NCBI GenBank assembly: GCA_963771465.1
Contig: CAVYTU010000009.1
Span: forward strand, 224,001 to 288,000
DNA: 64,000 nt
Source of the DNA: an uncultured delta proteobacterium
GTDB taxonomy: Bacteria > Desulfobacterota > Binatia > UBA9968
Reading direction: 5' to 3'
In this document: positions 14,914 to 63,880 of the stretch, piece by piece
How the letters are laid out: each line of letters starts with the position of its first letter
Position numbering within the stretch: position 1 is the stretch's first letter
Position numbers and translations under genes: made by a program
The notes under the pieces: generated by a model
Told to the model about the DNA's origin: nothing
The model's input: only the letters and a program-made list of their open reading frames with translations
The model's database searches: none

Positions 14914-14956
14914 TTGGCCGTCTCGTTGCCGATGAAATAGATTTTCGGCAAGCTGG

Positions 14957-40154: not shown

Positions 40155-40254
40155 GCGAACTCCGTAGTTATAGCGACGTCCACGTTACCGCGCAGCCGCA
40201 TCCCACACCTTAGCAAATTAGGAGCAAGACCATGACGACACGACGAACTTTCTT

Positions 40255-40908: not shown

Positions 40909-40915
40909 AAGTAAT

Positions 40916-41335: not shown

Positions 41336-41357
41336 GGCTACGTTGTCATAACGGACT

Positions 41358-42536: not shown

Positions 42537-42543
42537 CGGCTCG

Positions 42544-44150: not shown

Positions 44151-44230
44151 CGAGAATTTTAAAGCCCACGAGAGTCGTAAAGGGTTTTGGCTAAACGGTT
44201 GGCTGATCGTGGCATCATCGAACGGGCACA

Positions 44231-45307: not shown

Positions 45308-45330
45308 AAGCGTCAGGCACTAATAGATGC

Positions 45331-46521: not shown

Positions 46522-46744
46522 CGATCCCAATCACGACCCACTACAGACAATCATTGAAACTGTAACTCAAAAAAACTTTCTTAGGTCCCACAGACAGCAC
46601 CCTAGGCGTTAATTACCCGATATCGGACTCACTCAGCGAGGGCATTCTTGCACTTCGGAGCGATCATGAGTGACCCGCGTTAACGGCTCTCGCTGCCGGC
46701 GGCGGTCAACTTCGAATTGAAAGATCGCGCGACCGAACAACTCG

Positions 46745-47818
46745 CTAATTGCCGCGCCGCGGCAAAATCTCCTTCAGCATTTCCCGTGCCTTCAGTATGG
46801 CCGTTTTCGTAGTCGACCAATCGATGCACGGGTCGGTGATCGAGCAGCCGTATTTGAGTTTTGCTAAGTCGTCGGGGATCGGCTGGTTGCCGCCTTCGAT
46901 ATTACTTTCGATCATCAAGCCGACGATGGACGTATTGCCGTCGCGGATTTGGTGCACGCAGTCCGCCAGCACCAAAGGTTGCACGTAAGGATCTTTTGCC
47001 GAGTTGGCGTGTGAACAGTCGACGACAATGTTCGGTGCGAACTTGGCGTTGGTCAGCGCTTTCTCGGCCAACGCGATGCTCACCGTGTCATAGTTGGGAT
47101 GGCCATCGCCGCCACGCAGCACGAGATGGCCATAACGATTGCCACGGGTGCGCACGATCGACGAGCGCCCTTGAGCGCTGATACCGAGAAAACTATGGGA
47201 ATGCGCGGCGGATTTGATACCGTTGATCGCCGCGTCGATGTTGCCATCGGTGCCGTTTTTAAATCCCACCGGCGTCGATAGTCCGGACGCCATCTCGCGG
47301 TGCGTCTGCGACTCCGAAGTGCGCGCGCCGATCGCCGTCCAAGATATCAGGTCGCCCAAATATTGCGGCGTGATCGGGTCGAGCGCTTCGGTTGCCGTCG
47401 GCAGACCGATCTCGGTCACGCTCAGCAAAAACCGGCGCGCCTTCTCAATGCCCTCCTCAATGTGGAAAGAATCATCCATGCGCGGATCGTTGATGAAGCC
47501 CTTCCACCCGACCGAGGTGCGCGGCTTCTCGAAATAGACCCGCATGACTAAATATAGAGTGTCGCGCACTTCTTCGGCGAGCCGGGTCAGCCGCTGGGCA
47601 TAATCGTACCCGGCAATCGAATCGTGGATCGAGCAGGGACCAACGACGAGGAAGACGCGCGGGTCCAGGCGGTCGAGAATCCGTTGGATAGTGGCGCGGC
47701 CTTCGAAGACGGTTTCCGCCGCTTGATTTGAAATCGGCACACGCGTGTGAATTTCTTCCGGCGACGGCATCACATCCAGCGCCGCGATATTCAAGTTTTC
47801 TAATGGACGGTAGGCCAT
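46745..47818 (-). CDS. aroG: 3-deoxy-7-phosphoheptulonate (DAHP) synthase, class I-alpha (AroF/G/H type)
   Basis: GPCSIHD, EKPRT, IGARTSESQTHR, DCSHANS and SITDPC motifs. Confidence 0.93.
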   Translation of the reverse strand: MAYRPLENLNIAALDVMPSPEEIHTRVPISNQAAETVFEGRATIQRILDRLDPRVFLVVGPCSIHDSIAGYDYAQRLTRLAEEVRDTLYLVMRVYFEKPRTSVGWKGFINDPRMDDSFHIEEGIEKARRFLLSVTEIGLPTATEALDPITPQYLGDLISWTAIGARTSESQTHREMASGLSTPVGFKNGTDGNIDAAINGIKSAAHSHSFLGISAQGRSSIVRTRGNRYGHLVLRGGDGHPNYDTVSIALAEKALTNAKFAPNIVVDCSHANSAKDPYVQPLVLADCVHQIRDGNTSIVGLMIESNIEGGNQPIPDDLAKLKYGCSITDPCIDWSTTKTAILKAREMLKEILPRRGN

Positions 47819-48123
47819 ATACTCCCTGTTTCGATCGAGAAAATCTCCCACAGCCGTCGCACGACTGGATTATAACATGCGGAGCATGAGGTCGGAATCG
47901 CAATAGCCAGGGCTAACAAAATGGCGTCCTAGGCGAACGAACTGCTGACGGCGCCGTAAAGTAATGGGCGATTGATCGGGCGAGTTGGGCGTTGGCGCTT
48001 CTCTTGGCTCGTGAACCACCAGTGCCATGCTAATCCCTCTTTTGATTCGGGACTTTTTTGTTTGGTCGTCGCCGCTGCCGGCATTCATGCGACTTAGGCG
48101 AGCCTACCGGCCGCGGGCGACGC

Positions 48124-51726: not shown

Positions 51727-53151
51727 CTAAAACCGTCGATCCAATATGCGGCGGATCTCGATGACGTCAGAAGAGGGTTTCGAAGATCCTGTCGTCAAGA
51801 GCTTGTATGCGTCTTCGGCGTCCTGCCGGTACTCTCTCCGAAGTCTTACCGCAGCGGCATCGTGAACCGGGAACGTGATCGCGTTGAACTGCGTGAGCGC
51901 GGCTTTGGTGATTTTGCCTAAATCGTCTGGCGTGATCAGATTCTCAAGAGTCTTTGAATGCATAAGGGCGATCACAGCGGCATCGATGTAGTTTCGAAAA
52001 ACGATGACTCCCCGCCCGCTGGCGGAGGTCTTCTTGACTACAAGTTCCGAGGGAAGCTTTTTAAATGAAGAGCTCACCTTTGTGAGGTAATGAATAAAAG
52101 TGGTTACAACCCTGGTTGTCCCGCCCGTCAACCCCTTGGCGACCATCCGTTGCGCCGTCAGCGCGTCGGCTTGGCCAGAGTCGCCGACGAACACATAGCG
52201 ATATTCAGGATAGACCTCTGAAAATTTCAAAAAATTTCTAAACTTCACCTCGCCAATCTCATCTTCTTGTCCCGGAGGGATATCGTCATGCAAGGGATCA
52301 TCGAGTTTGTTCCGTAGCACGGTCTCATGCGTGTCTATGGTTGAACTCACAACGTCTCCCGACAATGCGCTGGGGCACAATTCTCCCGGTAAACTTATCA
52401 AGGCCCGAAGACTAGCCTCTTCTAGAACCCCAGCGACGGGATTGCGTCTGGCTGACAGAGTTGTCACGGGAGTCGCTGTCAGCGCGAAGGGCTCATCTTT
52501 CAAGGAATCGTAGAACTCCAGGACTCCGGGGTACAAGGTTTTCTTTGGATAGCGCGGATCAACGAGATTGGCGTACATCGTATCATCCACGTCGGAGAGA
52601 ACCTTGATGCCGATCTGCCGTGGCGCCTTGCCGAAATGCTCGATGATGCGATTTCGATACTCTTTGATGTCGATGTCGTGGAAGATGTATTCTTCAAGAT
52701 CCTTGTAGTCTCCGTCATATTCCAAGGCCAGCTTAAATAACGCCAGCTCTTTCGGAGCGATCGATAGGATGAGCCGTTCCATCCGTAACTCTCTCGGCTC
52801 ATCGCTCTCATCCTGCCTTGGCGACAGCCTTCTGAAGACTTCGATTTTATCGACCAGGCTAAGCGCGGCGCGGCGAATACGGTTGTCGAGTTCTTGAGCG
52901 CGTCGTTCCAGAGACGAACCCAGAAACGAGTACTGGGGTGCTGTTGGCCTCAGGTAAACATGGAGGAACTCATTGACACGCTTCGGATCAAACTGCCCGT
53001 AGTCGACGACTTGGCATCGATTCATTGAGGACCGGCTCTCAGGCGCTAGCTCGATAGCTTTGCCAACGGGTTTCCTAGACGCGTGTCCTTCAACGATACC
53101 CAGGCCGAAAACCAACGCTAACAACAGCCGCGACGATTTACGGTTGTTCAT
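51727..53151 (-). CDS. Secreted App1/DUF2183-like HAD phosphatase
   Basis: SDVDDT (DxDxT) and FVGDSGQAD motifs; signal peptide; RBS AAAGGG before ATG 53151. Confidence 0.75.
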   Translation of the reverse strand: MNNRKSSRLLLALVFGLGIVEGHASRKPVGKAIELAPESRSSMNRCQVVDYGQFDPKRVNEFLHVYLRPTAPQYSFLGSSLERRAQELDNRIRRAALSLVDKIEVFRRLSPRQDESDEPRELRMERLILSIAPKELALFKLALEYDGDYKDLEEYIFHDIDIKEYRNRIIEHFGKAPRQIGIKVLSDVDDTMYANLVDPRYPKKTLYPGVLEFYDSLKDEPFALTATPVTTLSARRNPVAGVLEEASLRALISLPGELCPSALSGDVVSSTIDTHETVLRNKLDDPLHDDIPPGQEDEIGEVKFRNFLKFSEVYPEYRYVFVGDSGQADALTAQRMVAKGLTGGTTRVVTTFIHYLTKVSSSFKKLPSELVVKKTSASGRGVIVFRNYIDAAVIALMHSKTLENLITPDDLGKITKAALTQFNAITFPVHDAAAVRLRREYRQDAEDAYKLLTTGSSKPSSDVIEIRRILDRRF

Positions 53152-53185
53152 GTTGATCCCTTTCACTATGCGCCAATTTTCGCCC

Positions 53186-53338
53186 GAGAGGTAGGCGGAG
53201 CGCACCGTCTGAGTATCGTTGCTGGTCAGGCCAACGATGGCGAGAGCGAAGTAGGCGACGACCGCGCGCGAGCCAGCCGACCGACAAGGTGGTATGCGCG
53301 GTGAGTGCGAATTTGCGGAGACTTGGTTTCATCGTCAT
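53186..53338 (-). pseudogene. Truncated, frameshifted paralog of the membrane protein at 58068-58733
   Basis: MTMKPSLRKFALTAHTTLSVGWL[frameshift]AVVAYFALAIVGLTSNDTQTVRSAYLS versus MTMTPRLRKFALTAHITFSVGWLGAVVPYLALAIVGLTSDDAQMVRAAYLS. Confidence 0.85.
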
Positions 53339-53342
53339 CGCC

Positions 53343-53402
53343 TCCGAATGCTAAGCTAGGGGCGGTCCGTCAGGGCCTTCCACCTTCGGCGAATTGTTGA
53401 GC
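53343..53402 (-). repeat. attC site (R' core mutated to ATT)
   Basis: Minus strand: GCTCAAC aattcgccgaaggtggaaggccctgacggaccgcccctagcttagc ATTCGGA, 1 bp after the GFA stop codon. Confidence 0.7.
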
Positions 53403-53403
53403 C

Positions 53404-53802
53404 TCACAGATAGCTTGTAATGGCTGGTGTCGAATGCTTGTCGTGCTTGCCGTCGACGTAGATTATTGGCGCGGCGGCAAGCTCTTCGGGTGTGACGTCT
53501 TCCAGGCACCCCAAGTTAACCCCATAAACTCGATTAGCGTCCGGCGCGTTACCAATGCCAAAAGAGCGCACGCCGCAGTGTTTGCAGAAATAGTGCTCGT
53601 TGCGCTTGGTGTTGAACAAGTATTGGGTTAGCTCTGACTGGCCGGAAATAAGGCGAAACGCTTCTGGTTTCACGACTGCAGGCCAAAAACGGTTTCTTGA
53701 GCAGATTGAACAGTTACACCGATAAGTCGCGGCGGTCAGATCGATATCAGCCTCGAAACGGACGGCGCCGCAATGACAACTGCCTCTATACGTCTTCAGC
53801 AT
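53404..53802 (-). CDS. GFA (CENP-V) family protein (cassette)
   Basis: GSCHCG, CNCSIC and FCKHCG motifs. Confidence 0.93.
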
Positions 53803-53956
53803 TCTTCAGTCCTCGCAAGATTTCCAATGAAGTTCAACGAGTGAACGGCGATATAATTCGAGATAGTTATCGCCTTCATCGGCAGTGGATCCTGGCTAAT
53901 GATGTCCAATGGGTAGCTGCTGCTGTTTTGCCTGGGGTTAAACATCCTCACTCTAT

Positions 53957-54534
53957 CTAATTGTCACGTTTATGCTCGTAGTGAAGGCAAGCAACACCGG
54001 ATGAAAACATGTTACTTGCAACGAGTTTTAGTGCCACCTTATCTGTAATGCCTTTGAACAACGGAATTCCTCGGCCTAGTAAAACTGGATTAACAAATAA
54101 CCAGTAATCGTCAATTAACTTTTCTGTCATTAGCGAATGCGCAGCGGTCGGACTTCCGAACATCAATATATCTTTACCCGCGTCTTGTTTAAGTTTAACG
54201 ATTTCGGCAGCTAGATTACCGTCAATAATTTTTGTGTTGGTCAGACTTTGCCCCGTTCATGGCTCTTCGACAACACAACTTTTGTTACTCTGTTATACCA
54301 TCTTGAATGCTCAACATCGTGTTTAGTTGCTGTCGGTAGTTGTGCCGCTGTCGGCCAATAGCTTTCCATCATTTGATAGGTTACTCGTCCGTACAAAGCT
54401 GTGTCAGCTTCGTTGGTCCGTTGCCCCGCAAAATCAAATATTTCTTCGTCGACGTTGATCCAGTCCATTTCTCCGTTCGGTCCCGCCACAAAGCCATCAA
54501 GTGATGTGTGTATAAATAAAACTAATTTTCTCAT
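53957..54534 (-). pseudogene. Dihydrofolate reductase/RibD C-terminal family protein with one frameshift (~54260)
   Basis: SLDGFVAG and GRVTY in one frame; FGSPT...LIDDY...PVLLGRG in another; AT-richer than flanks. Confidence 0.85.
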
Positions 54535-54639
54535 TTTGTCGGTCCGTTCAGTTGGTTAGTTAAGTTGCTTGTTAAATCGATTCTCAGTTGCGAAGTCATC
54601 TAGTTGCCGCTGGATTCCGGGTTCGGCCAACGGCGCCAA

Positions 54640-54942
54640 TCATCGCTGTGCTCTCCTCCAAGGACTGCCGATGCCGTCACGCTCCGCGATCCAACCACAG
54701 GGTAAGTCCGCCAACTCGCAAATGCTCGGGTCGTGGTCAACGATCGTGCTCAACGCCACAATCATCGCATCGCCGTCCGAAACCTGTGCCGCGCCAGTGT
54801 GAAACTGCCATGCGCCGTCCTCGTCGTCGTGCGAGACGTGGAGAATAGGCTGGCCGAGGCGCAAGACCTGTGTTGTCGTGAAGACCGCGACGTTCCGCGG
54901 GTCTGCAAACGGCCAATCTTGTGTTGTGCTTCGTGTTTTCAC
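54640..54942 (-). CDS. DUF2185/Imm33-like hypothetical protein (cassette)
   Basis: VSHDDEDGAWQF...DPSICELADLPCGW. Confidence 0.65.
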   Translation of the reverse strand: MKTRSTTQDWPFADPRNVAVFTTTQVLRLGQPILHVSHDDEDGAWQFHTGAAQVSDGDAMIVALSTIVDHDPSICELADLPCGWIAERDGIGSPWRRAQR

Positions 54943-54958
54943 GCGAGGTGGGACCTCC

Positions 54959-55043
54959 GCCTAATATTTGCATTCACCGCCCTGCGCGGCTTTTTCCAGT
55001 CCGTTGCAAAGAGGATAGCGCCTGTGACAGTGCATTGTTTTTC
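54959..55043 (-). repeat. Degenerate attC site
   Basis: Minus strand: GAAAAAC aatgcactg...gcggtgaatgcaaat ATTAGGC, overlapping the cupin stop codon. Confidence 0.5.
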
Positions 55044-55524
55044 AATAGGGTGTTCCATTCTTATGCAAGAACTGCCACTTCCCGTCATCACCCAATACGG
55101 CTTGTAAGTCGTCGTCGGGGTATGCCCCGGAATCGCCAGCAGTACGGTCGCCCACTTCGAGATAAAGGACGTCTTCGTTCGCTCGGTTTACGAGTTGATG
55201 TCCGTTTCCAGTGCCAGCCTTGAAACCGGCGCACATTCCTGGAAAAAGCGGCGTCTCGCCTTGATCCGTGATGAGTACCGGCTGTCCCGCCAAGATGTAC
55301 ACGAATTCATCCTGTTTCGAGTGGGCGTGGCGGAGTGCGGAGCATGCACCCGGAATCAGGCGCGTAAGATTCACACCAAAGTTCGCCAAACCGAACATGT
55401 CACCAAGCGCGCGCTTTTCTCGGCCAGCCATGCGCGACGCGAACGGCTCTGGATAGTTTGACGGCTTGGTTCGAGGTGGTGCGTCCAAGGCAGCGATTGC
55501 TGTTGGGAACTCTGTATTCGCCAT
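55042..55524 (-). CDS. Cupin domain protein (cassette)
   Basis: SNYPEPF, FGVNL, SALRHAHSKQDEF and YPDDDL motifs. Confidence 0.9.
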   Translation of the reverse strand: MANTEFPTAIAALDAPPRTKPSNYPEPFASRMAGREKRALGDMFGLANFGVNLTRLIPGACSALRHAHSKQDEFVYILAGQPVLITDQGETPLFPGMCAGFKAGTGNGHQLVNRANEDVLYLEVGDRTAGDSGAYPDDDLQAVLGDDGKWQFLHKNGTPY

Positions 55525-55547
55525 AGAGACTCCGGGTTGTTGATGGT

Positions 55548-55619
55548 TCTTAACGCCAAGCTCAGCCGCGACTCGCCGCGCAACGGAAGCGGGACGTCGG
55601 CTTGAATCGATTGTTGGCG
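55548..55619 (-). repeat. attC site (intact core)
   Basis: Minus strand: CGCCAAC aatcgattcaagccgac...gcggctgagcttggc GTTAAGA, directly after the stop codon; resembles aadA-type attC. Confidence 0.9.
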
Positions 55620-56021
55620 TCATTTGCTCGATACAGGAACCAGCATATTGGCGTCGCGTGCCAGCACCCACCTGCCATCCTGCTTCCTGAGAATAGAGAG
55701 CGTATGCCCTGCACGCGTCATAGGTTGAGCTCCGCCCGGCGGAGTGACTACGACCGTGAGCTTTGTCCACATGAAAGCCCAGTCTTCTAGCACCTTGATT
55801 TCTTGTATCTCACTCGTGCCCTCGAACTGCGGCGCCGTTTGACCTGATTGCGCGCGCGATGCTGTCGCGAACGCGGACTTTCCGACCATGGGCGGTTGGC
55901 CAGCTATAAGAAATACAACATCGTCGGCCATCAGGCTCAAAACTGTTTCGATGTCACCGGCTTTCGTCGCAGTCATCCAGGTTGCGACCAACTGACGTAT
56001 CTCGCTCTCATCACTTTGCAT
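55620..56021 (-). CDS. SgcJ/EcaC (DUF4440, NTF2-like) family protein (cassette)
   Basis: DESEIRQLVATW...LMADDVVFL...WVLARDANM. Confidence 0.88.
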   Translation of the reverse strand: MQSDESEIRQLVATWMTATKAGDIETVLSLMADDVVFLIAGQPPMVGKSAFATASRAQSGQTAPQFEGTSEIQEIKVLEDWAFMWTKLTVVVTPPGGAQPMTRAGHTLSILRKQDGRWVLARDANMLVPVSSK

Positions 56022-56036
56022 GTGTGCTCCTTATGA

Positions 56037-56104
56037 CGCCAACGCTTTGCGGCTGAGCGGCTTTGTTTTTCTGAAGCTCCGTCGTTACACACTGATTCTT
56101 GGAT
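56037..56104 (-). repeat. Degenerate attC site
   Basis: Minus strand: ATCCAAG...gccgctcagccgcaaagc GTTGGCG; GTTGGCG is complementary to the CGCCAAC that ends the same cassette. Confidence 0.55.
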
Positions 56105-56341
56105 GGACTCACTTGGCCGCGTGGCACTCGCGATATCTATCTAAGAGGAACAAAGATCGATAAGTGACTCTGATGTGGATAGTTTCTTGAACCGCCTGGT
56201 GAAATGCGATTGCCTGGGTTTGATATATATATCGCAAGCGGCAAACTGCTTTGCCACAAATTCCCGGGCTCTTTTGCATGATCTCCGATCGAACATACAG
56301 CTCCCCTCAATAGGCATAGATTATTACAGATCTGAATGCTC

Positions 56342-56405
56342 GTCTAATGTCGACGCTAAGCGACGCATCGTCGCGGGGCGTCCCGTCAGCGCGCCCATGT
56401 TAGAC
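56342..56405 (-). repeat. attC site (R' core mutated to ATT)
   Basis: Minus strand: GTCTAAC atgggcgcgctgacgggacgc...gcgtcgcttagcgtcgac ATTAGAC. Confidence 0.75.
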
Positions 56406-56471
56406 GGCCTGCGGATCAAAATGAGCGCATCACTCTTCAAGACTCATACTGCTTCGCCGGTGCGACGCGAC

Positions 56472-57848
56472 TCAAGGCAATGGGCGAATGTTCTGGTTGA
56501 TGTGGAAGAAATTACTTGGGTCGTACTTGGTCTTGATCTCCTGGAGCCGCCGATAGTTGGCCCCGTACGCGGCGGCGATCGGATCGCCTGTTTCGTCGTC
56601 GCCCAAGTAATTCACATAGCGGCCGGAGCCGACGAAGGGCTCCATCGCCGCATAGGTTTCCCGCCCCCAGGCAATGCAGCGATCGCTATTTGCCGGCTCC
56701 ATCCATTCGGAGAGCACGACGAGGTTGTAACCATCCGCGCGGTGCGGGAACGCCGTGTCGCCGGTCCCTATCCGGGCTGCGGCGCCGTGGAAGTGCTCGA
56801 GGAGTAGCTGGCCCATTGGGGTGGGGCAGCGGTCGAAGCACTCGACCATCGTGTCGATAGCATCGTCGCTCAGTTGTGCGAGGAAGCTCGACTTCCAATA
56901 ATTGAGCGCCCCTTTCGGATAGGCGCCGTCGAGCATCGCGTTGAGCTGACAGTAAGGCATGGGGCCGAGCGCGTCCATGAGCGGAGTACCGAATTGCTTG
57001 AGCGGCCGCATCGCCGTTTCTCCCTCGGCAAGCGAGCCACAGTGACCCGTCACCATCGCCGCCAGCTTCGTGCCAGAGCCGTCGCCGGCGTGGATGAGGC
57101 CCGCGAACACGGTGAATTCGTCTGGCAGCGACACAGTGAAATCCCGGTAGAACTTCAGTACGTCGCGGGCGCGGTCGAACGGGTGCGCGACCAGGCCGCC
57201 TGTGATCGTGGGCCCGACCGGATGAAGCTGATATTCGAAGGACGTCGCCACGCCGAAGTTTCCACCACCACCTCGAACGGCCCAGAAAAGATCAGGCAGT
57301 TCATCCTTGCTCGTCTGCAACACCTGGCCTTCGGCGGTAACAATTTCAACCGACCGAAGATTGTCGAGTGCCAGGCCGTACTTGCCCATCAGCCAACCAA
57401 GTCCACCGCCGAGTGTGAGTCCAGCGATGCCAGTGGTCGACACCACACCGCCCGTGACCGCCAGGCCGTGCAACTGCGTCTCGCGGTTGAGCTCGGCCCA
57501 AGTGACTCCGCCCTGGGCCCGCACGGTACGGGCGTAGGGGTCGACGTGGATGCCTTTCATCGGCATGAGGTCGATCATCAGCCCGCTATCGACGGTGGCG
57601 CGCCCGGCCACGTTGTGGCCGCCGCCACGGATCGCCACCTCAAGACTTAGCTTTCGCGCGAGGTTGACGGCGTCGACGACATCGGCCACGCCATGGCATC
57701 GCGCAATCAATGCCGGCCGTTTGTTCACTAAACCATTGTGGACTTTCCTTGCCTCCTCGTAGCCCGCATCGCTGGGCTGTAGGAGTTGCCCGGAGAACTT
57801 GCTAGCAAGCTCGATGACAGCGTCGGCAACGGATGGAACTGAAGTCAT
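56472..57848 (-). CDS. FAD-binding oxidoreductase (berberine bridge enzyme-like; cassette)
   Basis: RGGGHN, TLGGGLG, GGGGNFGV, YVNY and KYDP.N.F motifs. Confidence 0.93.
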   Translation of the reverse strand: MTSVPSVADAVIELASKFSGQLLQPSDAGYEEARKVHNGLVNKRPALIARCHGVADVVDAVNLARKLSLEVAIRGGGHNVAGRATVDSGLMIDLMPMKGIHVDPYARTVRAQGGVTWAELNRETQLHGLAVTGGVVSTTGIAGLTLGGGLGWLMGKYGLALDNLRSVEIVTAEGQVLQTSKDELPDLFWAVRGGGGNFGVATSFEYQLHPVGPTITGGLVAHPFDRARDVLKFYRDFTVSLPDEFTVFAGLIHAGDGSGTKLAAMVTGHCGSLAEGETAMRPLKQFGTPLMDALGPMPYCQLNAMLDGAYPKGALNYWKSSFLAQLSDDAIDTMVECFDRCPTPMGQLLLEHFHGAAARIGTGDTAFPHRADGYNLVVLSEWMEPANSDRCIAWGRETYAAMEPFVGSGRYVNYLGDDETGDPIAAAYGANYRRLQEIKTKYDPSNFFHINQNIRPLP

Positions 57849-57899
57849 AGCGTCTCTCTCCTTCGTGTAGGGTTGATGAATCTAAAATTTGATAAGACC

Positions 57900-57965
57900 G
57901 TCTAACAGCTTGCCGATGAGCTGCTGGCGCCGCAGGCGACCGTCGGATTCATCCGCTTGTTGGCC
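57900..57965 (-). repeat. attC site (intact core)
   Basis: Minus strand: GGCCAAC aagcggatgaatccgac...gcagctcatcggcaagct GTTAGAC. Confidence 0.85.
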
Positions 57966-58067
57966 AGTATATTCTTGCTCTAAATAATCCGTCGAACGTG
58001 AAACGTAAACAGTCTCGGCCCTCTTGCGACAAGTGTACGACCAAACGCGTGGAGCTTCATGCGATGC

Positions 58068-58733
58068 TCAATGGCCCCGCAGGCCACCGCCGGTGAGATG
58101 CAGTATGACAAACAGCAGGACAAGGCCGATGGCGTGAATGGCGTGAATACCAACTACGCGCATCCAGCGTGGCGTACTGGTCGCAAATACCGGCGCGCGC
58201 ACCAAGGTGGCGTTGTCGCTGGGACGGGGCTGCGATAGCTGACGCCGGCCGTAAGAGGTCATGCCCCACGGCTTGAACAACGACACTGCCGTGACCGCAA
58301 GCAACACCAACAAGCCGCCCGCAGCGTGGACCACGAGTTGAACTCGCAGCGCGCGGAAATCGGCATTGGACAATATCGTCTCCGCCGCGATCCGTGACAT
58401 GCGGCTCACTGCCTGCATGTGACCAAGCAAGACGACGGTGGCACCCGTCGTCAGCAGGAACTTCACCAGTATCCACCAGTATCGGAACAAGCCCCACGGA
58501 GTGCCCAATGACTGGACAAGCCCGCTCAACAGTGCGGCGACGCTCAATGGGACGATGACAAACCAGCCAATCAACTCCATCGAGAGATACGCGGCGCGCA
58601 CCATCTGAGCATCGTCGCTGGTCAGACCGACGATGGCGAGAGCCAGGTAAGGAACGACGGCGCCGAGCCAGCCGACGGAGAAAGTGATGTGCGCAGTGAG
58701 CGCGAACTTGCGGAGGCGTGGTGTCATCGTCAT
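58068..58733 (-). CDS. DUF2269-like membrane protein (cassette)
   Basis: LTAH..SVGWLG, LGTPWGLFRYWW..K and KPWG motifs; multiple TM helices. Confidence 0.75.
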   Translation of the reverse strand: MTMTPRLRKFALTAHITFSVGWLGAVVPYLALAIVGLTSDDAQMVRAAYLSMELIGWFVIVPLSVAALLSGLVQSLGTPWGLFRYWWILVKFLLTTGATVVLLGHMQAVSRMSRIAAETILSNADFRALRVQLVVHAAGGLLVLLAVTAVSLFKPWGMTSYGRRQLSQPRPSDNATLVRAPVFATSTPRWMRVVGIHAIHAIGLVLLFVILHLTGGGLRGH

Positions 58734-58784
58734 AACATGTCCATTCTTTGTTTTGTTTTTGTTGATCGCGAAATGCTCGCTACC

Positions 58785-58846
58785 GCCTAACGTTCCCACT
58801 GAGACGCGCGAGTCTTTCACGCGTCGGACTCGAACCGGTGTTAGGC
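58785..58846 (-). repeat. attC site (intact core)
   Basis: Minus strand: GCCTAAC accggttcgagtccgacgcg...cgcgtctcagtgggaac GTTAGGC. Confidence 0.85.
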
Positions 58847-58996
58847 AACCGCGTCGATAATTGGACTTATCCCCTTTTTCTCTGCCGATTCTATGGTGCA
58901 GTGGTGTATTAGAATTGTCATCTCTATCGCTTTTCATACGCGGCTGCGCCGATGACGCTCCCGCGGCGCGGTAATCTGAAAGGTCGCCACCTTCGC

Positions 58997-59188
58997 TCAA
59001 TCGGGGCCAAGCAACACCGGCAGAAGGAAGGTCCAGATTATTACCGCGGCACCCGTTACAATCACGCCCAGCACCATGGCCCAGGTCAGATGCTTGGAAC
59101 TAAGGTACTTTCCCCGTGTGGAATGCGCGTGCTCCGCTTTCTTTTGTTCTCGCTCTTGTCGATGGGACAGATCGCCCTCGTTGCTCAT
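58997..59188 (-). CDS. Small membrane protein (cassette)
   Basis: RBS AAGGAG; 63 aa with a C-terminal TM helix. Confidence 0.6.
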   Translation of the reverse strand: MSNEGDLSHRQEREQKKAEHAHSTRGKYLSSKHLTWAMVLGVIVTGAAVIIWTFLLPVLLGPD

Positions 59189-59251
59189 ATCGTCTCCTTT
59201 TTCCTGGCAACAAAACTATGAATAGCATTTGATCACTTCGCACCGTCATTG

Positions 59252-59310
59252 AGCTAACGTGGCGTCAACCGCGCCCGCTTGCGGGCATGGGCTGCATAGC
59301 AGGAAATGAT
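59252..59310 (-). repeat. Partial attC site (only the R'/L' half is recognisable)
   Basis: Minus strand: ...gcccgcaagcgggcgcggttgacgccac GTTAGCT. Confidence 0.45.
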
Positions 59311-59913
59311 TTATGTCTCTTGTATCCAACCAACGCTTTTCGCCCATTCCAACCGTTTGCGTTTGGCTTCCGCAAGGTCGCGGGGCGGCTTGCCTCCCTC
59401 AGATTCGACTTCCTTTCGGTGCGCCGCCAAGTCATCATCTTGTGTGGCGGGCAGTCCCATGTCCCGTCTTCTCGCATCAAGATTGACCGGGTCTTCAACT
59501 ACGCATGAAAGCTCACCCTGCTCATTCCAATCCAACACCGTCCCATACATCTGGGGTTTGTTTTCATTGAATCGAATCCTATCAATTAGAAAGGCAACCT
59601 GCGCTTTTGGGACCTCGCCGTTTTCAGCAGCCTCGGTGACAAGCGCGAGAAACCTCCGCTGCAAATCAGGAGTACATATGGAATGTTGGGCGATTAGCCA
59701 AGCCGCGCGGCAACCCTCGAGGCCGACTAGTGAAATGGTCGGCCAACCATGCTGCGAGATGACTTCATTCAGCCGGTGTGCGTTTTCCCGGTGCACTTGT
59801 TGCATTTCCTCGGCATAACCGTCATACAGCCGGCCCTCCCGCACCAACCGTGAACGAGTGTCCGCGTCGCGTTGCTTCATCGCGAGCAATTCATCGAACA
59901 AGTGCTGATTCAT
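59311..59913 (-). CDS. DUF6624-like protein (cassette)
   Basis: HGWPTISLVG...AWLIAQHS...DRI...PQMYGT...LDARR..MGL. Confidence 0.8.
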   Translation of the reverse strand: MNQHLFDELLAMKQRDADTRSRLVREGRLYDGYAEEMQQVHRENAHRLNEVISQHGWPTISLVGLEGCRAAWLIAQHSICTPDLQRRFLALVTEAAENGEVPKAQVAFLIDRIRFNENKPQMYGTVLDWNEQGELSCVVEDPVNLDARRRDMGLPATQDDDLAAHRKEVESEGGKPPRDLAEAKRKRLEWAKSVGWIQET

Positions 59914-59934
59914 GAGCTTCGCCCCATATGAGAA

Positions 59935-60021
59935 GCACGACGTTTTGGTGAGTGGCCCACCGGCACGACAGAAGAATGAGGGCACCGCTTTCTGCCCGTC
60001 CGCTCCACCTAAATATTGGGC
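59935..60021 (-). repeat. Degenerate attC site
   Basis: Minus strand: GCCCAAT atttaggtggagcggacgggcag...gccggtgggccactcaccaaaac GTCGTGC. Confidence 0.65.
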
Positions 60022-60029
60022 GTCTGTCA

Positions 60030-60308
60030 TTAATGGCCGAATCCTCCACAAATCGCTTTTGCCTCGTCCCAGCATGAAGCACAAAAGATCTTGAATTCTG
60101 CGTCTTCAAACCATTGCTCAGATGACGCACCACTAAGGGCGACGAGGGCTTTTTCACATTGTGCGCACCAAGCATCAGGCCGAGCCGTGTCAGTGTCGTC
60201 GCCCCAGTAGAACCCGACTTTCTCTCCACGGTCCACGGCGTGAGCTACATGTGTACAAACAAGGCCTATGCCTTGCTGTCCGTGCACCGGGCAATTCGTC
60301 TGCTTCAA
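60030..60308 (-). CDS. Small Cys/His-rich hypothetical protein (cassette)
   Basis: CPVH, CTH, WCAQC and CASC motifs; TTG start just after GTTAGGC. Confidence 0.65.
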   Translation of the reverse strand: MKQTNCPVHGQQGIGLVCTHVAHAVDRGEKVGFYWGDDTDTARPDAWCAQCEKALVALSGASSEQWFEDAEFKIFCASCWDEAKAICGGFGH

Positions 60309-60316
60309 TTGAAAAC

Positions 60317-60441
60317 GCCTAACGCATGGTTGCGGCAACTTGCGGCAACACGGGCAAAAGTGCTGCCTACACCACTTTGGTGGCTATGCACCACATCGTG
60401 CCCGTGTCCTTCACGCCGACCGGAGACCGCCAGCATTACAT
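60317..60441 (-). repeat. Long degenerate attC site
   Basis: Internal stems acacgggca/tgcccgtgt and cacca/tggtg; ends gcaaccatgc GTTAGGC; R'' is degenerate. Confidence 0.55.
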
Positions 60442-61421
60442 CAAGAATCCACGTTCACTACTGTTACGAATTTCTTCTCTGCAACTGCGAATCGACGCTT
60501 TTCTTTGTCAATCGCAATGGGAGGCGCGTGAATTTCATTCCAGATGACGCTACTGGTTTGATTTCCAGAATTGATCTCCTCCCATCGCTTTAGAACCTCG
60601 CCTGTCTTGAGTGAAAATAACTTGGGAAAACCATAGAATCCAATCGCAAGCTCTTCATCAAGGGGCATTAACATGCCGACTGGTTCTTGTGCTTGGACGC
60701 ATGATTCTATGGTTCTGGTGGACAAGTTCACGACAGCCAGGGATCTTGGACCGACATTCCCCTCATCTGGATCATCATCCAAAGTTTCATTGGAGGTAGT
60801 AATAAGCATCCGATCGCGGGAGATTAGTTCTGCAGAAACTACTTCGTACTCAAAGCTTGGTAGCGGCAACGATTTATCAAGGGCAGCGCCGTCTCGGAGC
60901 GAGGCGTTGATGTCATACACGGCAACATCGTTCCAGGGGTGCCATATCCAACCGGCGCTGAGGAGCCAATTGCCATTACGGCAAGTCCGTAAGCGCGAAT
61001 GAAAAAAATCACTTGGCTGTCGCATGTCCGATTTAGCAAGCGTCTCCCCGGTTCGAATATCCTCTATTTCGAGGCGACAATACTGCTCTGGGCAGTGCAC
61101 TAGAGCGGTTTGTCCATCCTGAGTTTCAAAAATTGCGATTGGGTATTCATAAACATTCGCGTGATAGAAACTCCGATTGATCTCTCGAACTACGTGGCCC
61201 TTGTTCAAGACCAAGCCTTTTGTTCCCAGTTTTTCATAGATAACAGCGAATTCGCCACAAGGAGACATCACAGCAGCATCGAATCGATAACCATAGATGA
61301 CATTGGGGTCCCCGACCGTTCCGTCCAAACGCAGGATTTGGCCACCACTGGCCCAATCGATCAGCTGATCATCTAGCCAGCAGAGTGAACGAATATTATG
61401 AGGTGCTTCTATACGCTGCAT
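60441..61421 (-). CDS. Hypothetical beta-rich (propeller-like) protein (cassette)
   Basis: 326-aa ORF between attC sites; AT-richer than the host background. Confidence 0.75.
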   Translation of the reverse strand: MQRIEAPHNIRSLCWLDDQLIDWASGGQILRLDGTVGDPNVIYGYRFDAAVMSPCGEFAVIYEKLGTKGLVLNKGHVVREINRSFYHANVYEYPIAIFETQDGQTALVHCPEQYCRLEIEDIRTGETLAKSDMRQPSDFFHSRLRTCRNGNWLLSAGWIWHPWNDVAVYDINASLRDGAALDKSLPLPSFEYEVVSAELISRDRMLITTSNETLDDDPDEGNVGPRSLAVVNLSTRTIESCVQAQEPVGMLMPLDEELAIGFYGFPKLFSLKTGEVLKRWEEINSGNQTSSVIWNEIHAPPIAIDKEKRRFAVAEKKFVTVVNVDS

Positions 61422-61454
61422 ATCGTCAGTTCACTGGTACAGTGAGGTCCTGCT

Positions 61455-61535
61455 GTCTAACGTCCGCGATGACGCGCGCGAGCGTGTGCGCGAAGCGCCG
61501 CTCGCGAAGGATCGCTGTCGACCGCGTGATTATGC
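61455..61535 (-). repeat. attC site (R'' mutated to AAT)
   Basis: Minus strand: GCATAAT cacgcggtcgac...cgcgagcg...cgctcgcg...gtcatcgcggac GTTAGAC. Confidence 0.75.
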
Positions 61536-61628
61536 GGCATCAATTCTCACAAGTTGTGCGCGCAAGCCGGGGTTTGCCTCGGGTGCGATCTGGCCGACGA
61601 GTAACGTCCAGTATGGCGGAATCGGAAC

Positions 61629-62003
61629 TTAGACGCTCTGGACCAACGCCATGATGTTTCCTTCCGTGTCCTTGAACCACGCAGCCTTGGCGCCGCCAGC
61701 GGTCGAGATACCGTTCTCGTCCATCTCTGGCATCTTGTACATCTCCAACTTCACGCCGCGCGTCTTTAGCTCCCTGACCTCCCGTTCGATGTCCTCGACC
61801 TGCCAGAACGCCTGGCTCGCATGGGAGGTGCCTGCGTTCGGTGTAGGATAAAGAAAGCAAGCGGTGCCCTTGCCGAACTCGTAAACTACGCCGCCCGCCA
61901 ACTCCTGCTTGGGTTTGAAGCCCAGCTTCTCCTCGTAGAATCTACGCGCGCGAGCCACGTCCTTCGCGGGTATATATGAATACATCGGGGCGTTTTGCAG
62001 CAT
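61629..62003 (-). CDS. VOC/glyoxalase family protein (cassette)
   Basis: ARRFYEEKLG and AAWFKDTEGN motifs; RBS GAGGAGG. Confidence 0.92.
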   Translation of the reverse strand: MLQNAPMYSYIPAKDVARARRFYEEKLGFKPKQELAGGVVYEFGKGTACFLYPTPNAGTSHASQAFWQVEDIEREVRELKTRGVKLEMYKMPEMDENGISTAGGAKAAWFKDTEGNIMALVQSV

Positions 62004-62056
62004 GACGTCCTCCTCAAGTGGTTCTGCAGATGTGTGCTACCGGCATTCTTAATGAC

Positions 62057-62125
62057 GCATAACGTCAGCGCGTAGCCGCGGCGGCGCGATGACCGGCCGC
62101 TGTCGCCTCCAGCGCAAGGTCAGAC
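62057..62125 (-). repeat. attC site (R'' mutated to GAC)
   Basis: Minus strand: GTCTGAC cttgcgctggaggcgacagcggc...gccgccgcggctacgcgctgac GTTATGC. Confidence 0.75.
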
Positions 62126-62187
62126 GGCGTGAGCAAGGTTTCACGCGGTCACCGGGGTCAACGGCCTTGTGGTATTGACACCGCCGT

Positions 62188-63057
62188 CTAAGCTGAAGCG
62201 GCCTGATGCGCCCGGAGGAAGGAACGTATCTGGCGCACCGCCAGGGGAATCCGCTCCTTCGGCTCCTTCCAGGGGAACATACTCACTTCTGCCTTCGGTG
62301 CGAGCATCGCCGCCTCCATGGCGACGGCGTACGGATGCGGCGTGGTATCATCCGGCAGGATCAGTAGGGGCGTCTGGCACTTGCGCACGAAATCGCGCGT
62401 CACAGTCCAAACGAAGTCGGGGTTGGTGCGGTACATCTTGGTCAGAAATTTGTCGACCATCTCCATCGTGATGTCGGGCCGGCGCTTGACCAGATCGGGA
62501 CCCCAGCCCTTCATGTTGCCGTCGTACGAGTGATTGGGCAGCTCCGGCCGGAATCCGCTCGGCTGAGCCAGCACGGCTGCGACAATACGATCAGGTGCCC
62601 GCTTCAGCAGGTTCCAAATCAATGGGCCACCGATGCAGAAGCCCATCACCATGAACTTGTCGATTCTTAAGTGATCCATCACACCAATATGGTCATCGGT
62701 ATAGGCATCCCACGGCCGGTCGATCTCGAGCGGGCCGGTAGACTGGCCGCCATTGGCGTTGCGCATATCCGAGAAGATGCAGCGGTATTCTCCCTTGAAC
62801 TCCTCGATCGCATTAAAAGGCCCGCCGCGTTTCAAGCCGGCGATCGTTGAGTTCAATCCGCCACCGGGGACAAGCAACAACGGGAAGCCGGAACCAGCCT
62901 CCTCATATTGGATGCGAACGGGGCCTTTTTCGTAAAACGACATGGCAATTCCTCCTTGTCCAGTTTGCTGAGCAATCACGCGCGGCGCTGCGGCCATCAC
63001 CGTTGCCGCGGCGCCCGTTTTCAGTATTTTGCGTCTGATCGGATCCATCGTCGGCAT
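62188..63057 (-). CDS. Alpha/beta hydrolase with a Cys nucleophile motif and Tat-like leader (cassette)
   Basis: RRKILKTGAAA leader; GFCIGG; PGGGLNS. Confidence 0.85.
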   Translation of the reverse strand: MPTMDPIRRKILKTGAAATVMAAAPRVIAQQTGQGGIAMSFYEKGPVRIQYEEAGSGFPLLLVPGGGLNSTIAGLKRGGPFNAIEEFKGEYRCIFSDMRNANGGQSTGPLEIDRPWDAYTDDHIGVMDHLRIDKFMVMGFCIGGPLIWNLLKRAPDRIVAAVLAQPSGFRPELPNHSYDGNMKGWGPDLVKRRPDITMEMVDKFLTKMYRTNPDFVWTVTRDFVRKCQTPLLILPDDTTPHPYAVAMEAAMLAPKAEVSMFPWKEPKERIPLAVRQIRSFLRAHQAASA

Positions 63058-63073
63058 CCTCCTGACTTTCGAC

Positions 63074-63155
63074 GCCTAACTCAATGCGCTGAGCGGTCGT
63101 AAAAAAAGAATTCTGCCTGAGCAGTCTGACCATTAGCTCCACCGAAGGGTCAGGT
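63074..63155 (-). repeat. attC site (R'' mutated to GAC)
   Basis: Minus strand: ACCTGAC ccttcggtggagctaatggtc...gaccgctcagcgcattga GTTAGGC. Confidence 0.6.
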
Positions 63156-63446
63156 GTCACTTCGAGAACTGCCACCGGAAACTTCGACGCCTAGGCCGCA
63201 GTGGCCAGTGATCAAGCAGTTTCAACTCCTCGTTATCAGCAACAATATAATCGCAGTAGTCATGCTGTTGCCAAGTCGCCGAATGATTGCCGCATCTTGA
63301 CCAGCATAGCGCACGGCCCCCACGCAGCATCTTTCAGCCGCCCGACATGTCTCAACTCTTCGCTTGTGACAGGCTGCCGAACAAAATACCTTTCGTCGTT
63401 GTCACCCGCAAGCGGCGCAAATAATTCAGGCGCTTCATGCTCCGTG

Positions 63447-63761
63447 TTACTTGCCGTTTAGCCCATCGCGCCAGGCAATCGTTTCAAGTTCGACCCGGAC
63501 AGCGTCCTCGACGGGAATCACGGGTCGCGCCTCGAATACAAAAGCAGGCCAGGTCGAGCATACCTTGTGAACGGTCGTCGGATCATCGCAGTCCACCAAC
63601 ATATGCCCACCCCACTCGCCCACGCGCACCACGAACAACTCGATCTTGAAATTAGCGGGTGCCTTCCATTGAGTGAAAACCTCCAGGATCCGCTTCTGGG
63701 CATTCTCGTACTCCGTCGGCGATCCTTGCGGACGTTCGAACCAGCTGATCATGTACTTCAT
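63447..63761 (-). CDS. DUF3303-like protein (cassette)
   Basis: MKYMISW...F..W..P...GG...DCDDP...PVIPVEDA; RBS AAGGAGG. Confidence 0.75.
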   Translation of the reverse strand: MKYMISWFERPQGSPTEYENAQKRILEVFTQWKAPANFKIELFVVRVGEWGGHMLVDCDDPTTVHKVCSTWPAFVFEARPVIPVEDAVRVELETIAWRDGLNGK

Positions 63762-63805
63762 CGGCATCCTCCTTTATTGAGTTGATGTCATCGGAACGGC
63801 AGTCG

Positions 63806-63880
63806 TTTGAACGGGCAAAGCTGAGCGGTGCGTGCACGCGGTTTGCGCGTGTGGATGTCCGCGACAGCGCATTGTTAGGC
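63806..63880 (-). repeat. attC site (intact AAC/GTT)
   Basis: Minus strand: GCCTAAC aatgcgctgtcgcggac...gcaccgctcagctttgccc GTTCAAA. Confidence 0.8.

Follow-up and report, generated by a model that had tools for sequence, protein, structure and literature searches.

Between positions 53343 and 63880 of the window (the whole stretch of 64,000 nt analysed here), a preliminary description noted about 13 imperfect palindromes following gene stops and read them as attC sites of a chromosomal integron or a CALIN in a poorly studied lineage. This raises the question as to whether the palindromes are genuine attC sites and, if so, whether the element to which they belong still has an integrase. The genome (G000) is a Candidatus Binatia MAG of an uncultured soil bacterium (6.9 Mb in 19 contigs, with an estimated completeness of 99.4% and contamination of 6.3%). 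We consider it probable, at roughly 85%, that the locus is a genuine cassette array of a resident chromosomal integron that has become a CALIN through integrase loss, and that the interval represents the promoter-distal two thirds of the first of its two arrays (array A). The element would be of an ordinary type, previously not described in this lineage.

attC sites and cassettes

We searched with two home-made, briefly calibrated covariance models, neither of which has a training site from 53343-63880: R2, trained on three clinical attC sites and six local sites outside the interval, and R3, trained on 25 sites adjoining true intI genes in three congeners and on no site of this genome. As shown in Table 1, where E values refer to the 80 kb searched, five sites in the interval (starting at 55548, 58785, 61455, 62057 and 63806) are supported at E < 0.1, all on the minus strand. 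The identification of the palindromes as attC sites is borne out by minus-strand matches that outscore anything in the remaining 53 kb of ordinary genes, where the highest score is 12.1 bits with R2 and 13.7 bits with R3. Over the whole locus the two models together support 12 minus-strand sites at E < 0.1, from 55548 to 77125, accompanied by about six marginal or partial ones. In a whole-genome search with R3, 10 of the 20 matches at E ≤ 10 fall inside C9:279548-301125, a segment that makes up 0.36% of the genome, and these 10 share the minus strand; at this scale the five interval sites have E values of 0.08-6 and are therefore significant only as a one-stranded cluster. Five further candidates (56037, 56342, 57900, 59265 and 63074) are not clear of noise and rest on context. 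Five model-supported and about five marginal palindromes were thereby recovered in the interval, and the full count of about 13 was not reproduced. The four sites that had been singled out, at 55548-55619, 57900-57965, 58785-58846 and 63806-63880, do lie on the minus strand with the kind of ends described; 57900-57965 scores at noise level and the other three are matched by the models, and the case in which none of them scores, which had been set to count against the idea, therefore does not apply. A search of the window against Rfam, which is without the attC model of IntegronFinder, gave no match at gathering score.

Table 1 Features of the interval and of the surrounding locus. Positions above 64000 are extrapolated (position on contig C9 minus 224000).
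Feature	Position	Strand	Details
Truncated, frameshifted membrane-protein gene copy, left array edge	53138..53338	-	18 of 22 N-terminal residues identical to 58068-58730
Apparently decaying far end of array	53343..55527	-	Cupin, weak Imm33-like ORF, RibD_C split by frameshift (53957-54534), GFA (Pfam)
attC CGCCAAC...GTTAAGA	55548..55619	-	R2 21.3 bits, E 0.016; R3 19.4 bits, E 0.047
SnoaL/DUF4440 (SgcJ-like) cassette gene	55620..56021	-	Pfam
Candidate short attC-like site GTGTAAC...GTTGGCG, closing an ORF-less stretch	56037..56090	-	Matched by no model; R' GTTGGCG complements R'' CGCCAAC of 55548-55619 7/7
Marginal attC-like site GTCTAAC...ATTAGAC	56342..56405	-	R2 9.6, R3 10.8 bits (noise); sole support own-core match 7/7
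FAD-linked oxidase cassette gene	56472..57848	-	Pfam FAD_binding_4 and BBE
Marginal attC-like site GGCCAAC...GTTAGAC	57900..57965	-	R3 12.5 bits, E 1.5 (noise level); R2 none at E ≤ 10; R' complements R'' of 56342-56405 7/7 across the FAD-oxidase gene
Membrane protein cassette gene	58068..58730	-	No Pfam family match
attC GCCTAAC...GTTAGGC, cleanest of window	58785..58846	-	R2 26 bits, E 1.3e-3; R3 27.2 bits, E 9.5e-4; outside R2 training set; hairpin with R box paired
Three co-oriented ORFs	59311..61421	-	326 aa and 102 aa, both without known function, and DUF6624 (Pfam)
attC GCATAAT...GTTAGAC	61455..61535	-	R3 23.5 bits, E 6e-3; R2 18.8 bits; R1 21.6 bits
VOC/glyoxalase cassette gene	61629..62003	-	Pfam Glyoxalase; 5' core GTTATGC vs own R'' GCATAAT 6/7
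attC GTCTGAC...GTTATGC	62057..62125	-	R2 19.2 bits, E 0.047; R3 18.7 bits, E 0.068
Alpha/beta hydrolase cassette gene	62188..63057	-	Pfam Abhydrolase_1
Marginal attC-like site upstream of alpha/beta-hydrolase cassette	63074..63155	-	R2 12.4 bits, E 1.7 (noise level); R3 none
DUF3303 cassette body	63445..63819	-	Gene 63447-63767; Pfam DUF3303, 74 bits; no homologous attC after it here
attC of AHSA1/SRPBCC cassette, GCCTAAC...GTTCAAA	63806..63880	-	R3 26.1 bits, E 1.6e-3; R2 11.7 bits; R'' GCCTAAC complements own 5' core GTTAGGC 7/7; R' end degenerate or ambiguous
AHSA1/SRPBCC gene	63933-64430	-	Extends past window end
Array A	65720 down to about 53340	-	Cassettes
attI-like site	65782-65736	-	Conservation and position
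Conserved block	68760-65882		ORF without known function, ImuB-like Y-family polymerase homologue, four-helix-bundle "23S IVP", higA-like fragment
Array B	77742 (C9 end) down to 69673	-	Holds IS256-family element
C4 segment (own coordinates)			In minus-strand reading order: DUF5131 flank gene, IS3-family element, last 16 intI codons, attI-like region

The R boxes of the 12 supported sites are regular, with a GTTAGRY end in nine and R'' carrying AAC in ten, GAC in one and AAT in one. The attC structure (an imperfect hairpin with an unpaired central spacer and an L box) holds in the nine-sequence training alignment, which includes gar, aadA1 and sat2; 12 of 23 L-box pairs change on both sides, a level of covariation reached by none of 500 shuffles. 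Folding of the bottom strands, proposed earlier as a check, yielded one hairpin each for sites s1-s7, the '' arm carrying bulged bases, and the bottom strands of the weak sites 63074, 57900, 56037 and 56342 do not form one hairpin. The four matches quoted previously between a 5' core and the cassette's own inverse core are correct as written, at 7/7 for the SgcJ/SnoaL and FAD-oxidase cassettes and 6/7 for the VOC and GFA cassettes. For the whole locus, 76 of 91 positions are complementary between 5' core and own R'' and 5 of 13 cassettes are perfect (permutation test; the sum has p = 1.3e-4 and the number of perfect cassettes p = 3.9e-4), and all cassette ORFs lie on the minus strand, as cassette logic has it. 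Parts of the array are less regular. Between the three ORFs of 59311..61421 there is no model-supported attC, the only match near them being a partial one at noise level (59265-59296, R3 12.8 bits). Within 53343..55527 only degenerate palindromes separate the genes and neither R2 nor R3 gives a match above noise; the sole match at E ≤ 10 left of 55548 (R2, 54193-54246, 9.5 bits) lies inside the frameshifted RibD_C gene.

The data show the attC architecture, an own-core complementarity of the kind expected of former circles, and one cassette with 97% identity to that of another species. Each cassette would have entered as a circle through IntI-catalysed attI x attC recombination, the recombination point probably being the G|TT of the folded bottom strand, i.e. 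the window's plus strand. The array would now be frozen unless IntI acts in trans, with its far end presumably decaying. The 12 supported sites are 58-109 nt long with a mean pairwise identity of 0.59 (range 0.42-0.78), and cassette GC3 ranges from 0.41 to 0.78. The earlier suggestion that such heterogeneous sites point to many donors is weakened, since attC arrays adjoining intact intI in congeners are equally heterogeneous (mean identity 0.57-0.59).

Anatomy of the locus and its integrase genes

The array continues for 13.7 kb beyond the window, to the end of C9, which breaks inside an attC, and an assembly gap separates this end from the start of contig C4. The locus comprises two tandem arrays (A and B) with a conserved gene block between them. 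The congeners used for comparison include G006, G012, G014, G015 and G019, and L015, L018 and L021. Synteny with G015, G014 and G006 extends over the left flank (window 39063-47851), and the right flank, on C4, matches G015 and G012; by this flank synteny the chromosomal location is constant across the taxon. IntI matches are present in 13 of 24 congeners, and the congener IntI is bona fide (467 bits to TIGR02249, and 52% identity to IntI1 including the IntI-specific insert). In congeners, intact intI genes lie between the higA-like gene and attI, in the same orientation as the cassettes. G014 has two tandem integrons, and in G019 intI is upstream of its array B. The R2 matches at E ≤ 0.01 in G015, G019 and G014 number 25 and are without exception on the intI strand; they lie downstream of an intI, apart from three in G015's separate array across its intI. 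The DUF3303 cassette is identical at 364 of 375 positions (97%) to the first cassette after attI in G012, which adjoins an intact intI, whereas the flanking core genes are 73-78% identical to those of G012; copies of this cassette occur in four of five congeners, in differing places. The independent attC models, the Binatia lineage and the synteny with congener integrons together support the original reading of a chromosomal integron or CALIN in a poorly studied lineage.

The same description had predicted intI and attI beyond position 64000. An attI-like site is indeed present at about 65736-65782, but no intI was found there or anywhere in the assembly, in which the best match to TIGR02249 reaches 90 bits against a cut-off of 265; nor does any intI remnant show up in the last 15.7 kb of C9 (C9:286001-301742). 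Relative to G015, the locus lacks a 2.1-kb segment with intI; the missing piece falls precisely where the higA-like gene gives way to the attI-like site, and homology resumes on both sides. Of a second intI, 16 C-terminal codons are left beside the IS3-family element on C4. The clean absence of the array-A intI and the truncation of the second one therefore argue for a CALIN by integrase loss, and the locus has what defines a CALIN, two or more attC sites grouped on the same strand without intI nearby. The site at 65736-65782 is called attI-like from conservation and position: over 47 nt it shares 83% identity with the sequence that directly follows intI in G015, and its end, G|TTAGCC, complements the first cassette's R'' GGCTAAC. 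A core of approximately ACTYAATRG|TT follows intI in five of the seven distinct congener intI loci examined (G006, G012, the second intI of G014, G015 and G019) and is not evident in L015, L018 and the short L021. In G000 this core recurs on C9, C4 and C14.

Alternative explanations

It is unlikely that the locus is a complete, working integron whose intact intI lies in the gap between C9 and C4 or on a discarded short contig. In its favour, the end of C9 breaks an attC, and since none of the 19 contigs is shorter than 59 kb, short ones, among them any bearing intI, may have been filtered out; congeners have IntI matches, tandem integrons (G014) and an intI upstream of array B (G019). By synteny, however, the array-B intI should directly follow the DUF5131 gene, as in G012, and at this place C4 has the IS3-family element and then the last 16 intI codons; the place of the array-A intI lacks 2.1 kb, and no IntI was found in 6.9 Mb at 99.4% estimated completeness. 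We regard it as very improbable that the losses are an artefact of a collapsed or chimeric assembly of co-occurring strains, some of them still with intI. The contamination estimate of 6.3% would allow for this, integron arrays contain many repeats and are a frequent place for assemblies to break, and the length of C13, 499,999 bases exactly, hints at post-processed contigs; yet both junctions are inside long contigs rather than at contig edges, and congener G019 has the same intI-less junction beside its IVP gene, so the intI-less state occurs independently. Of the sequencing runs screened for reads of the source sample, none contains more than 27% of the sampled words.

That the palindromes are no more than intergenic hairpins of a common sort, terminators or REP-like repeats for example, with AAC/GTT ends by chance is hardly credible. 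The noise-level scores and lack of a single-hairpin fold at 63074, 57900, 56342 and 56037 would fit, as would the 1425 genome-wide matches of a loose pattern-plus-hairpin scan. This explanation is contradicted by attC models that were trained elsewhere and still match, always on one strand and in a cluster, by the covarying stems, the significant own-core statistic, the resemblance of one site to clinical attC, the synteny of the locus with intI-linked arrays and the cassette held in common at 97% identity.

Known integrons and a possible Binatia platform

The integrase-less integron favoured here can be compared with several known systems. Sedentary chromosomal integrons are known from Vibrio, and in Xanthomonas such integrons often have an inactivated intI. 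The Binatia locus is similar in its fixed chromosomal position within a genus, its long arrays, whose cassettes are promoterless and of no known function, a possible toxin-antitoxin cassette and intI decay in some lineages, but its attC sites are heterogeneous (mean identity 0.59, 58-109 nt); where sedentary integrons are taken to have more than 19 homogeneous attC sites, this locus has 12 supported and about six marginal or partial ones. Cury et al. (2016, NAR 44:4539; PMC4889954) describe CALINs as clusters of attC sites lacking an integron integrase, 83% of which have fewer than six attC; intI loss is given there as one proposed origin, most CALINs having no recognisable intI remnant. The locus is alike in its one-stranded, heterogeneous attC, the lack of a nearby intI, an IS element within the array, and cassettes mostly of no known or "detoxification-type" function, without resistance genes. 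It differs in being much larger, with 12 or more supported sites in addition to marginal ones, and in that the loss is traceable, through the retained attI-like site, the 16-codon intI remnant and the intact orthologous integron in congeners. The same source notes a trend of long arrays towards similar attC sites, and the heterogeneity of the long array described here runs against it. In chromosomal integrons of the Treponema denticola type, as described in PMC3607928, intI is transcribed towards attI and the cassettes. Congeners G015, G014, G019 and G012 likewise have intI upstream of the cassettes on the same strand; The system here differs from this type in belonging to another phylum, in having two tandem integrons and in an IVP gene that is always upstream of intI.

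A tentative and rather doubtful extension of these comparisons is that Binatia may have a syntenic integron platform of their own, specific to the lineage, with three departures from the textbook: intI may be co-oriented with the cassettes; the genes always ahead of intI may be one for a four-helix-bundle protein of the 23S-IVP family, to which the DGR accessory protein Avd belongs, together with a higA-like gene and one for an ImuB-like Y-family polymerase homologue; and the platform may be duplicated in tandem. The constant position of these genes before intI would point to a coupling of cassette recombination with a damage-inducible mutagenesis module. The long arrays may, moreover, keep highly dissimilar attC sites and swap cassettes between species (97% identity vs. 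about 77% for core genes), which, if true, would be a counter-example to the rule of homogeneous, locally made attC in long resident arrays.

Class 1 and class 2 mobile integrons differ from this locus, which is chromosomal, without transposon or plasmid context, resistance cassettes or intI. They are alike in attC architecture, and IntI1 shares 52% identity with the congener IntI. Site 55548-55619 resembles the clinical attC sites of gar, sat2 and aadA and aligns with those of gar, sat2 and aadA1; in BLASTN, its alignments of 40-46 nt with the site following sat2 in class 2 and the one following gar in class 1 have 81-84% identity.

attC sites and cassette boundaries

The palindromes of window 53343-63880 are confirmed as the attC sites of a cassette array. 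Every plausible gene of this interval lies on the minus strand, and the genes are small and mutually unrelated. The cargo is free of resistance genes, as first described, and comprises only small enzymes and unknowns, an ordinary content; the variation in gene GC content reported earlier is likewise seen (cassette GC3 0.41-0.78). A scan of the window at Rfam gathering thresholds gave no matches, Rfam being without an attC family, and attC covariance models were built for this analysis. Model R2 derives from a nine-sequence alignment into which no site from 53343-63880 was taken. It combines three clinical attC sites, two from a class 1 integron (following gar and aadA1) and one from a class 2 integron (following sat2), with four clean sites that lie past the window and two isolated ones from other contigs. 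This alignment has the textbook attC structure, namely an R box, an unpaired spacer, an L box with one bulged 5'-arm base and a variable stem, and both sides change in 12 of 23 pairs, a level of covariation reached by none of 500 shuffles. Model R3 was trained solely on three congener genomes (G015, G019 and G014), using their 25 R2 matches at E<=0.01, all 25 on the strand of a true intI, and therefore contains no sequence of the genome studied here (G000). Both are home-made models that give only approximate E-values. The R2 search, run without filters, covered the window and the 15.7 kb up to the contig end; the noise ceiling is 12.1 bits for R2 (best score in 53 kb of ordinary genes) and 13.7 bits for R3 (best score outside the locus).

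Cassette genes, attC sites and conserved-block genes in window coordinates, extrapolated beyond 64000
Feature	Position	Strand	Content or score
Cassette-array genes	53343-63880	minus	GFA, frameshifted RibD_C, cupin, SnoaL/DUF4440, FAD/BBE oxidase, membrane protein, DUF6624, 2 unknowns, VOC, alpha/beta hydrolase, DUF3303
attC	55548-55619	minus	R2 21.3 bits, E 0.016; R3 19.4 bits, E 0.047
attC	58785-58846	minus	R2 26.0 bits, E 1.3e-3; R3 27.2 bits, E 9.5e-4
attC	61455-61535	minus	R2 18.8 bits; R3 23.5 bits, E 6e-3
attC	62057-62125	minus	R2 19.2 bits; R3 18.7 bits, E 0.068
attC	63806-63880	minus	R3 26.1 bits, E 1.6e-3
attC	64443		R2 25.6 bits (outside R2 training set)
attC	69680		R2 17.5 bits (outside R2 training set)
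attC	75921		R2 32.4 bits (outside R2 training set)
attC beyond window	64443, 65113, 69673, 71794, 72499, 75921, 77060		R3 29-53 bits
At or below R3 noise	57900-57965; 59265; 56342		R3 12.5; 12.8; 10.8 bits
Conserved-block genes	65882-68760		unknown ORF; 551-aa ImuB-like Y-family polymerase homologue (Pfam IMS, weak DinB matches); four-helix-bundle '23S rRNA IVP' (TIGR02436); higA-like fragment

The preliminary description had named four sites (55548-55619, 57900-57965, 58785-58846 and 63806-63880), whose coordinates and ends we verified, and had made its reading depend on a covariance model scoring at least one of them; three of the four score, with 57900-57965 at noise level, so the reading is not refuted. 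Across the whole genome, 10 of 20 R3 matches at E<=10, these ten all on the minus strand, and 10 of 15 R2 matches fall within C9:279548-301125, on the contig that holds the window (incomplete searches, only 150 first-look candidates being scored in each). When bottom strands (window plus strand) are folded as DNA, each strong site gives one hairpin whose bulged bases lie on the ''-arm, a fold that the weak sites lack. Over 40-46 nt, site 55548-55619 shares 81-84% identity with the clinical attC sites after sat2 and gar. An earlier model, R1, built from three near-identical local sites, was too narrow, scoring 61455 weakly and missing 55548, 57900 and 63806. A Python scan for the pattern plus an MFE hairpin was too strict for most of the sites first described and too loose genome-wide (1425 hits), and its sole use was in locating clean seed sites past the window end; MAFFT alignments of the sites, which are of unequal length, were unusable.

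Cassette ends provide a separate line of evidence. Circles cut at G|TT are expected to leave, after the G at the 5' end of a cassette, six bases complementary to that cassette's own R'' and not to its neighbour's. The preliminary description quoted a 5' core and the matching inverse core for four cassettes, all correctly; among the 13 cassettes whose two ends could both be assigned, complementarity holds at 76 of 91 positions (p = 1.3e-4 by partner shuffling). The match is perfect in five of them, the SnoaL, FAD oxidase and AHSA1 (attC 63806-63880) cassettes and two at the contig end, and this complementarity is all that supports sites 57900, 56342 and 56037, which are weak.

The cassette pattern does not stop at the window; C9 extends 13.7 kb past it, and the pattern persists to the final bases of the contig, which start on the minus strand with GCGTTAGACG, the R' end of an attC, placing the assembly break inside a site. 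A search for overlap between this end and other contig ends found none, and no sequencing run searched holds more than 27% of sampled words from the last 1.8 kb of C9. Contigs from four soil/rhizosphere runs cover only about 14096-14969 of locus L001 (C9:286001-301742), that is one cassette ORF, 90-99% alike, plus short attC cores. They diverge on both flanks of this stretch at boundaries 85-91 nt inside the attC limits, and hence neither prove nor disprove cassette boundaries and leave the C9 gap unclosed. The cassettes fall into two arrays on either side of a conserved block at 65882-68760: array A spans ~53340-65720, and array B runs from 69673 to the end of the contig. Inserted in array B, immediately upstream of a UbiD-family decarboxylase gene, is an IS256-family (Transposase_mut) element whose reading frame is broken into two parts (L001 ~12330-13640, plus strand). 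The final cassette preceding the contig end (L001 15073-15700, extrapolated 77073-77700) holds a toxin-antitoxin-like pair, in which one ORF has a weak CopG-antitoxin match (23.6 bits, under the cut-off) and the ORF upstream of it appears by eye to be frameshifted.

Congener integrons and the fate of the two integrases

An integron integrase is absent from the 6.9-Mb assembly, where the best TIGR02249 match reaches 90 bits against a cut-off of 265. This cut-off is exceeded in 9 of 41 genomes searched, G000 included, and IntI matches at E<=1e-30 occur in 13 of 24 same-genus genomes; the IntI of G015 scores 467 bits, has the IntI-specific insert and is 52% identical to IntI1. The attC matches of G015, G019 and G014 lie downstream of intI on the same strand, a co-oriented layout that PMC3607928 describes for Treponema. 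The comparison with the unpublished genome G005 is needed for none of the claims. On the cassette strand, the congener gene order is unknown ORF, ImuB-like Y-family homologue, '23S IVP', higA-like, intI, attI and cassettes. G014 has two complete tandem integrons on one strand (C15:171000-203200, loci L028 and L029), with an IVP gene upstream of each intI and 27 minus-strand R2 matches at E<=1, while in G019 the IVP-adjacent intI is missing and one intI lies upstream of the next array.

Several stretches tie the G000 locus to these integrons. Window 39063-47851, from an enolase-family gene to DAHP synthase, is in the same order in G015:C4, G014:C15 and G006:C138, and the start of G000 contig C4 corresponds to the genes right of the G015 integron. 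The conserved block (C9:289882-292760) aligns with G015 across 2.9 kb at 77% identity; it sits directly upstream of intI in congener loci L014, L015, L023, L026 and L029, and between two arrays in G000. A 492-aa gene left of the array, used as query, was not found in five congeners and so does not help to place the array edge. The left flank also carries two minus-strand TIR-domain proteins (41358-42536 and 45331-46530), one fused to an FGE-sulfatase domain, and beside them a fusion of a trypsin-like peptidase with a non-specific endonuclease (48124-50157), which may be a defence-type neighbourhood. TTGAAC repeats lie just past the IVP stop codon; the DGR protein Avd is a member of the Pfam family of the four-helix-bundle IVP protein.

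The intI of array A was lost by a clean 2.1-kb deletion that left an attI-like site behind. Homology to G015 breaks off at L001 3882 and returns at L001 3782-3736 (47 nt, 83%); between these ends G015 has 2.2 kb including intI, versus 100 nt in G000. The prediction of intI and attI beyond 64000 was thus right for an attI-like site (extrapolated 65736-65782) and failed for IntI. The retained 47 nt carry the palindrome ATACTG-GT-CAGTAT and terminate in GGTTAGCC. Because the R'' of the first cassette is GGCTAAC in G000, G015 and G012, the attI crossover is likely G|TTAGCC, judging from these sequences. A related core, ACTYAATRG|TT, lies downstream of intI in five of the seven distinct congener intI loci that were examined (G006, G012, the second intI of G014, G015 and G019), and is not evident in L015, L018 and the short L021. 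A sigma-70-like consensus match overlaps the attI-like site (2 found versus 0.7 expected).

The intI of array B was lost by an IS3-associated truncation. Synteny with G012 places it directly after a DUF5131 gene, where C4 has an IS3-family element (Pfam HTH_Tnp_1 and rve). Beyond the element are 16 codons matching the IntI C-terminus (11/16 identical to G012, E 6.6e-4 in a small search), followed by ~190 nt with 70-84% identity to sequence downstream of the G019 intI; an attC search of C4:1-6000 found none. Both losses are read at junctions in assembled contigs of a MAG with an estimated contamination of 6.3%. Since every contig of this MAG is at least 59 kb, it is possible that an intI was on a discarded short contig.

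With both integrases of the locus gone and with its synteny to intI-bearing loci, the earlier reading of a chromosomal integron or CALIN in a poorly studied lineage is supported: a co-oriented chromosomal integron has become, by integrase loss, a large tandem CALIN. Such loss is among the origins proposed for CALINs in PMC4889954. CALINs are common, and where they come from can usually not be traced; in this locus, comparison with congeners directly shows how each of the two integrases was lost. We found no published mention of integrons in Binatia/Binatota in the literature searched, and these data add the uncultured soil lineage Candidatus Binatia to those with integrons. The congeners supply intact IntI, attI and attC sets for testing co-oriented integron recombination.

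Site heterogeneity, decay and isolated sites

In length the 12 supported attC sites range from 58 to 109 nt; their mean identity is 59% (range 42-78%), and they include a similar subfamily (58785, 65113 and 77060) with 82% mean column identity. The heterogeneity noted at the outset is therefore real but not peculiar to G000: arrays adjoining intact intI in G015, G014 and G019 have attC mean identities of 57-59%, so heterogeneity is a property of the genus's resident integrons. Heterogeneous attC in a resident array is relevant to the question of where cassettes are formed.

The frameshift in RibD_C, a truncated duplicate of the membrane-protein gene (53138-53338) and degenerate sites at the distal end of array A are all in keeping with an array whose maintenance has ceased. 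The DUF3303 cassette (63445-63819) is identical at 364 of 375 positions to the first post-attI cassette of G012; flanking core genes are 73-78% identical to those of G012. Copies with 81-90% identity occupy other positions in G019 (two), G015 and G014, making the cassette present in four of five congeners overall. Homology of the G000 copy ends at its stop codon, indicating that it has lost its own attC and rendering the R' of the preceding site ambiguous. At 63806-63880, homology to the G012 cassette begins 8 nt upstream of the GTTCAAA assigned by the models as R', and the exact crossover is ambiguous.

Away from any array, R3 finds isolated attC-like sites of 33-52 bits at C17:253742-253801, C15:1234132-1234194, C11:117978-118082, C8:102879-102937, C15:1228889-1228990 and C9:75128-75179, which could be single cassettes at secondary sites. 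At C14:238499-238522 (minus strand), where we found no intI, no attC above noise and no tRNA by ARAGORN, the ~75-nt attI-like/promoter-like sequence occurs a third time, with a GST-like gene after it and, before it, sequence resembling the 3' half of a tRNA.
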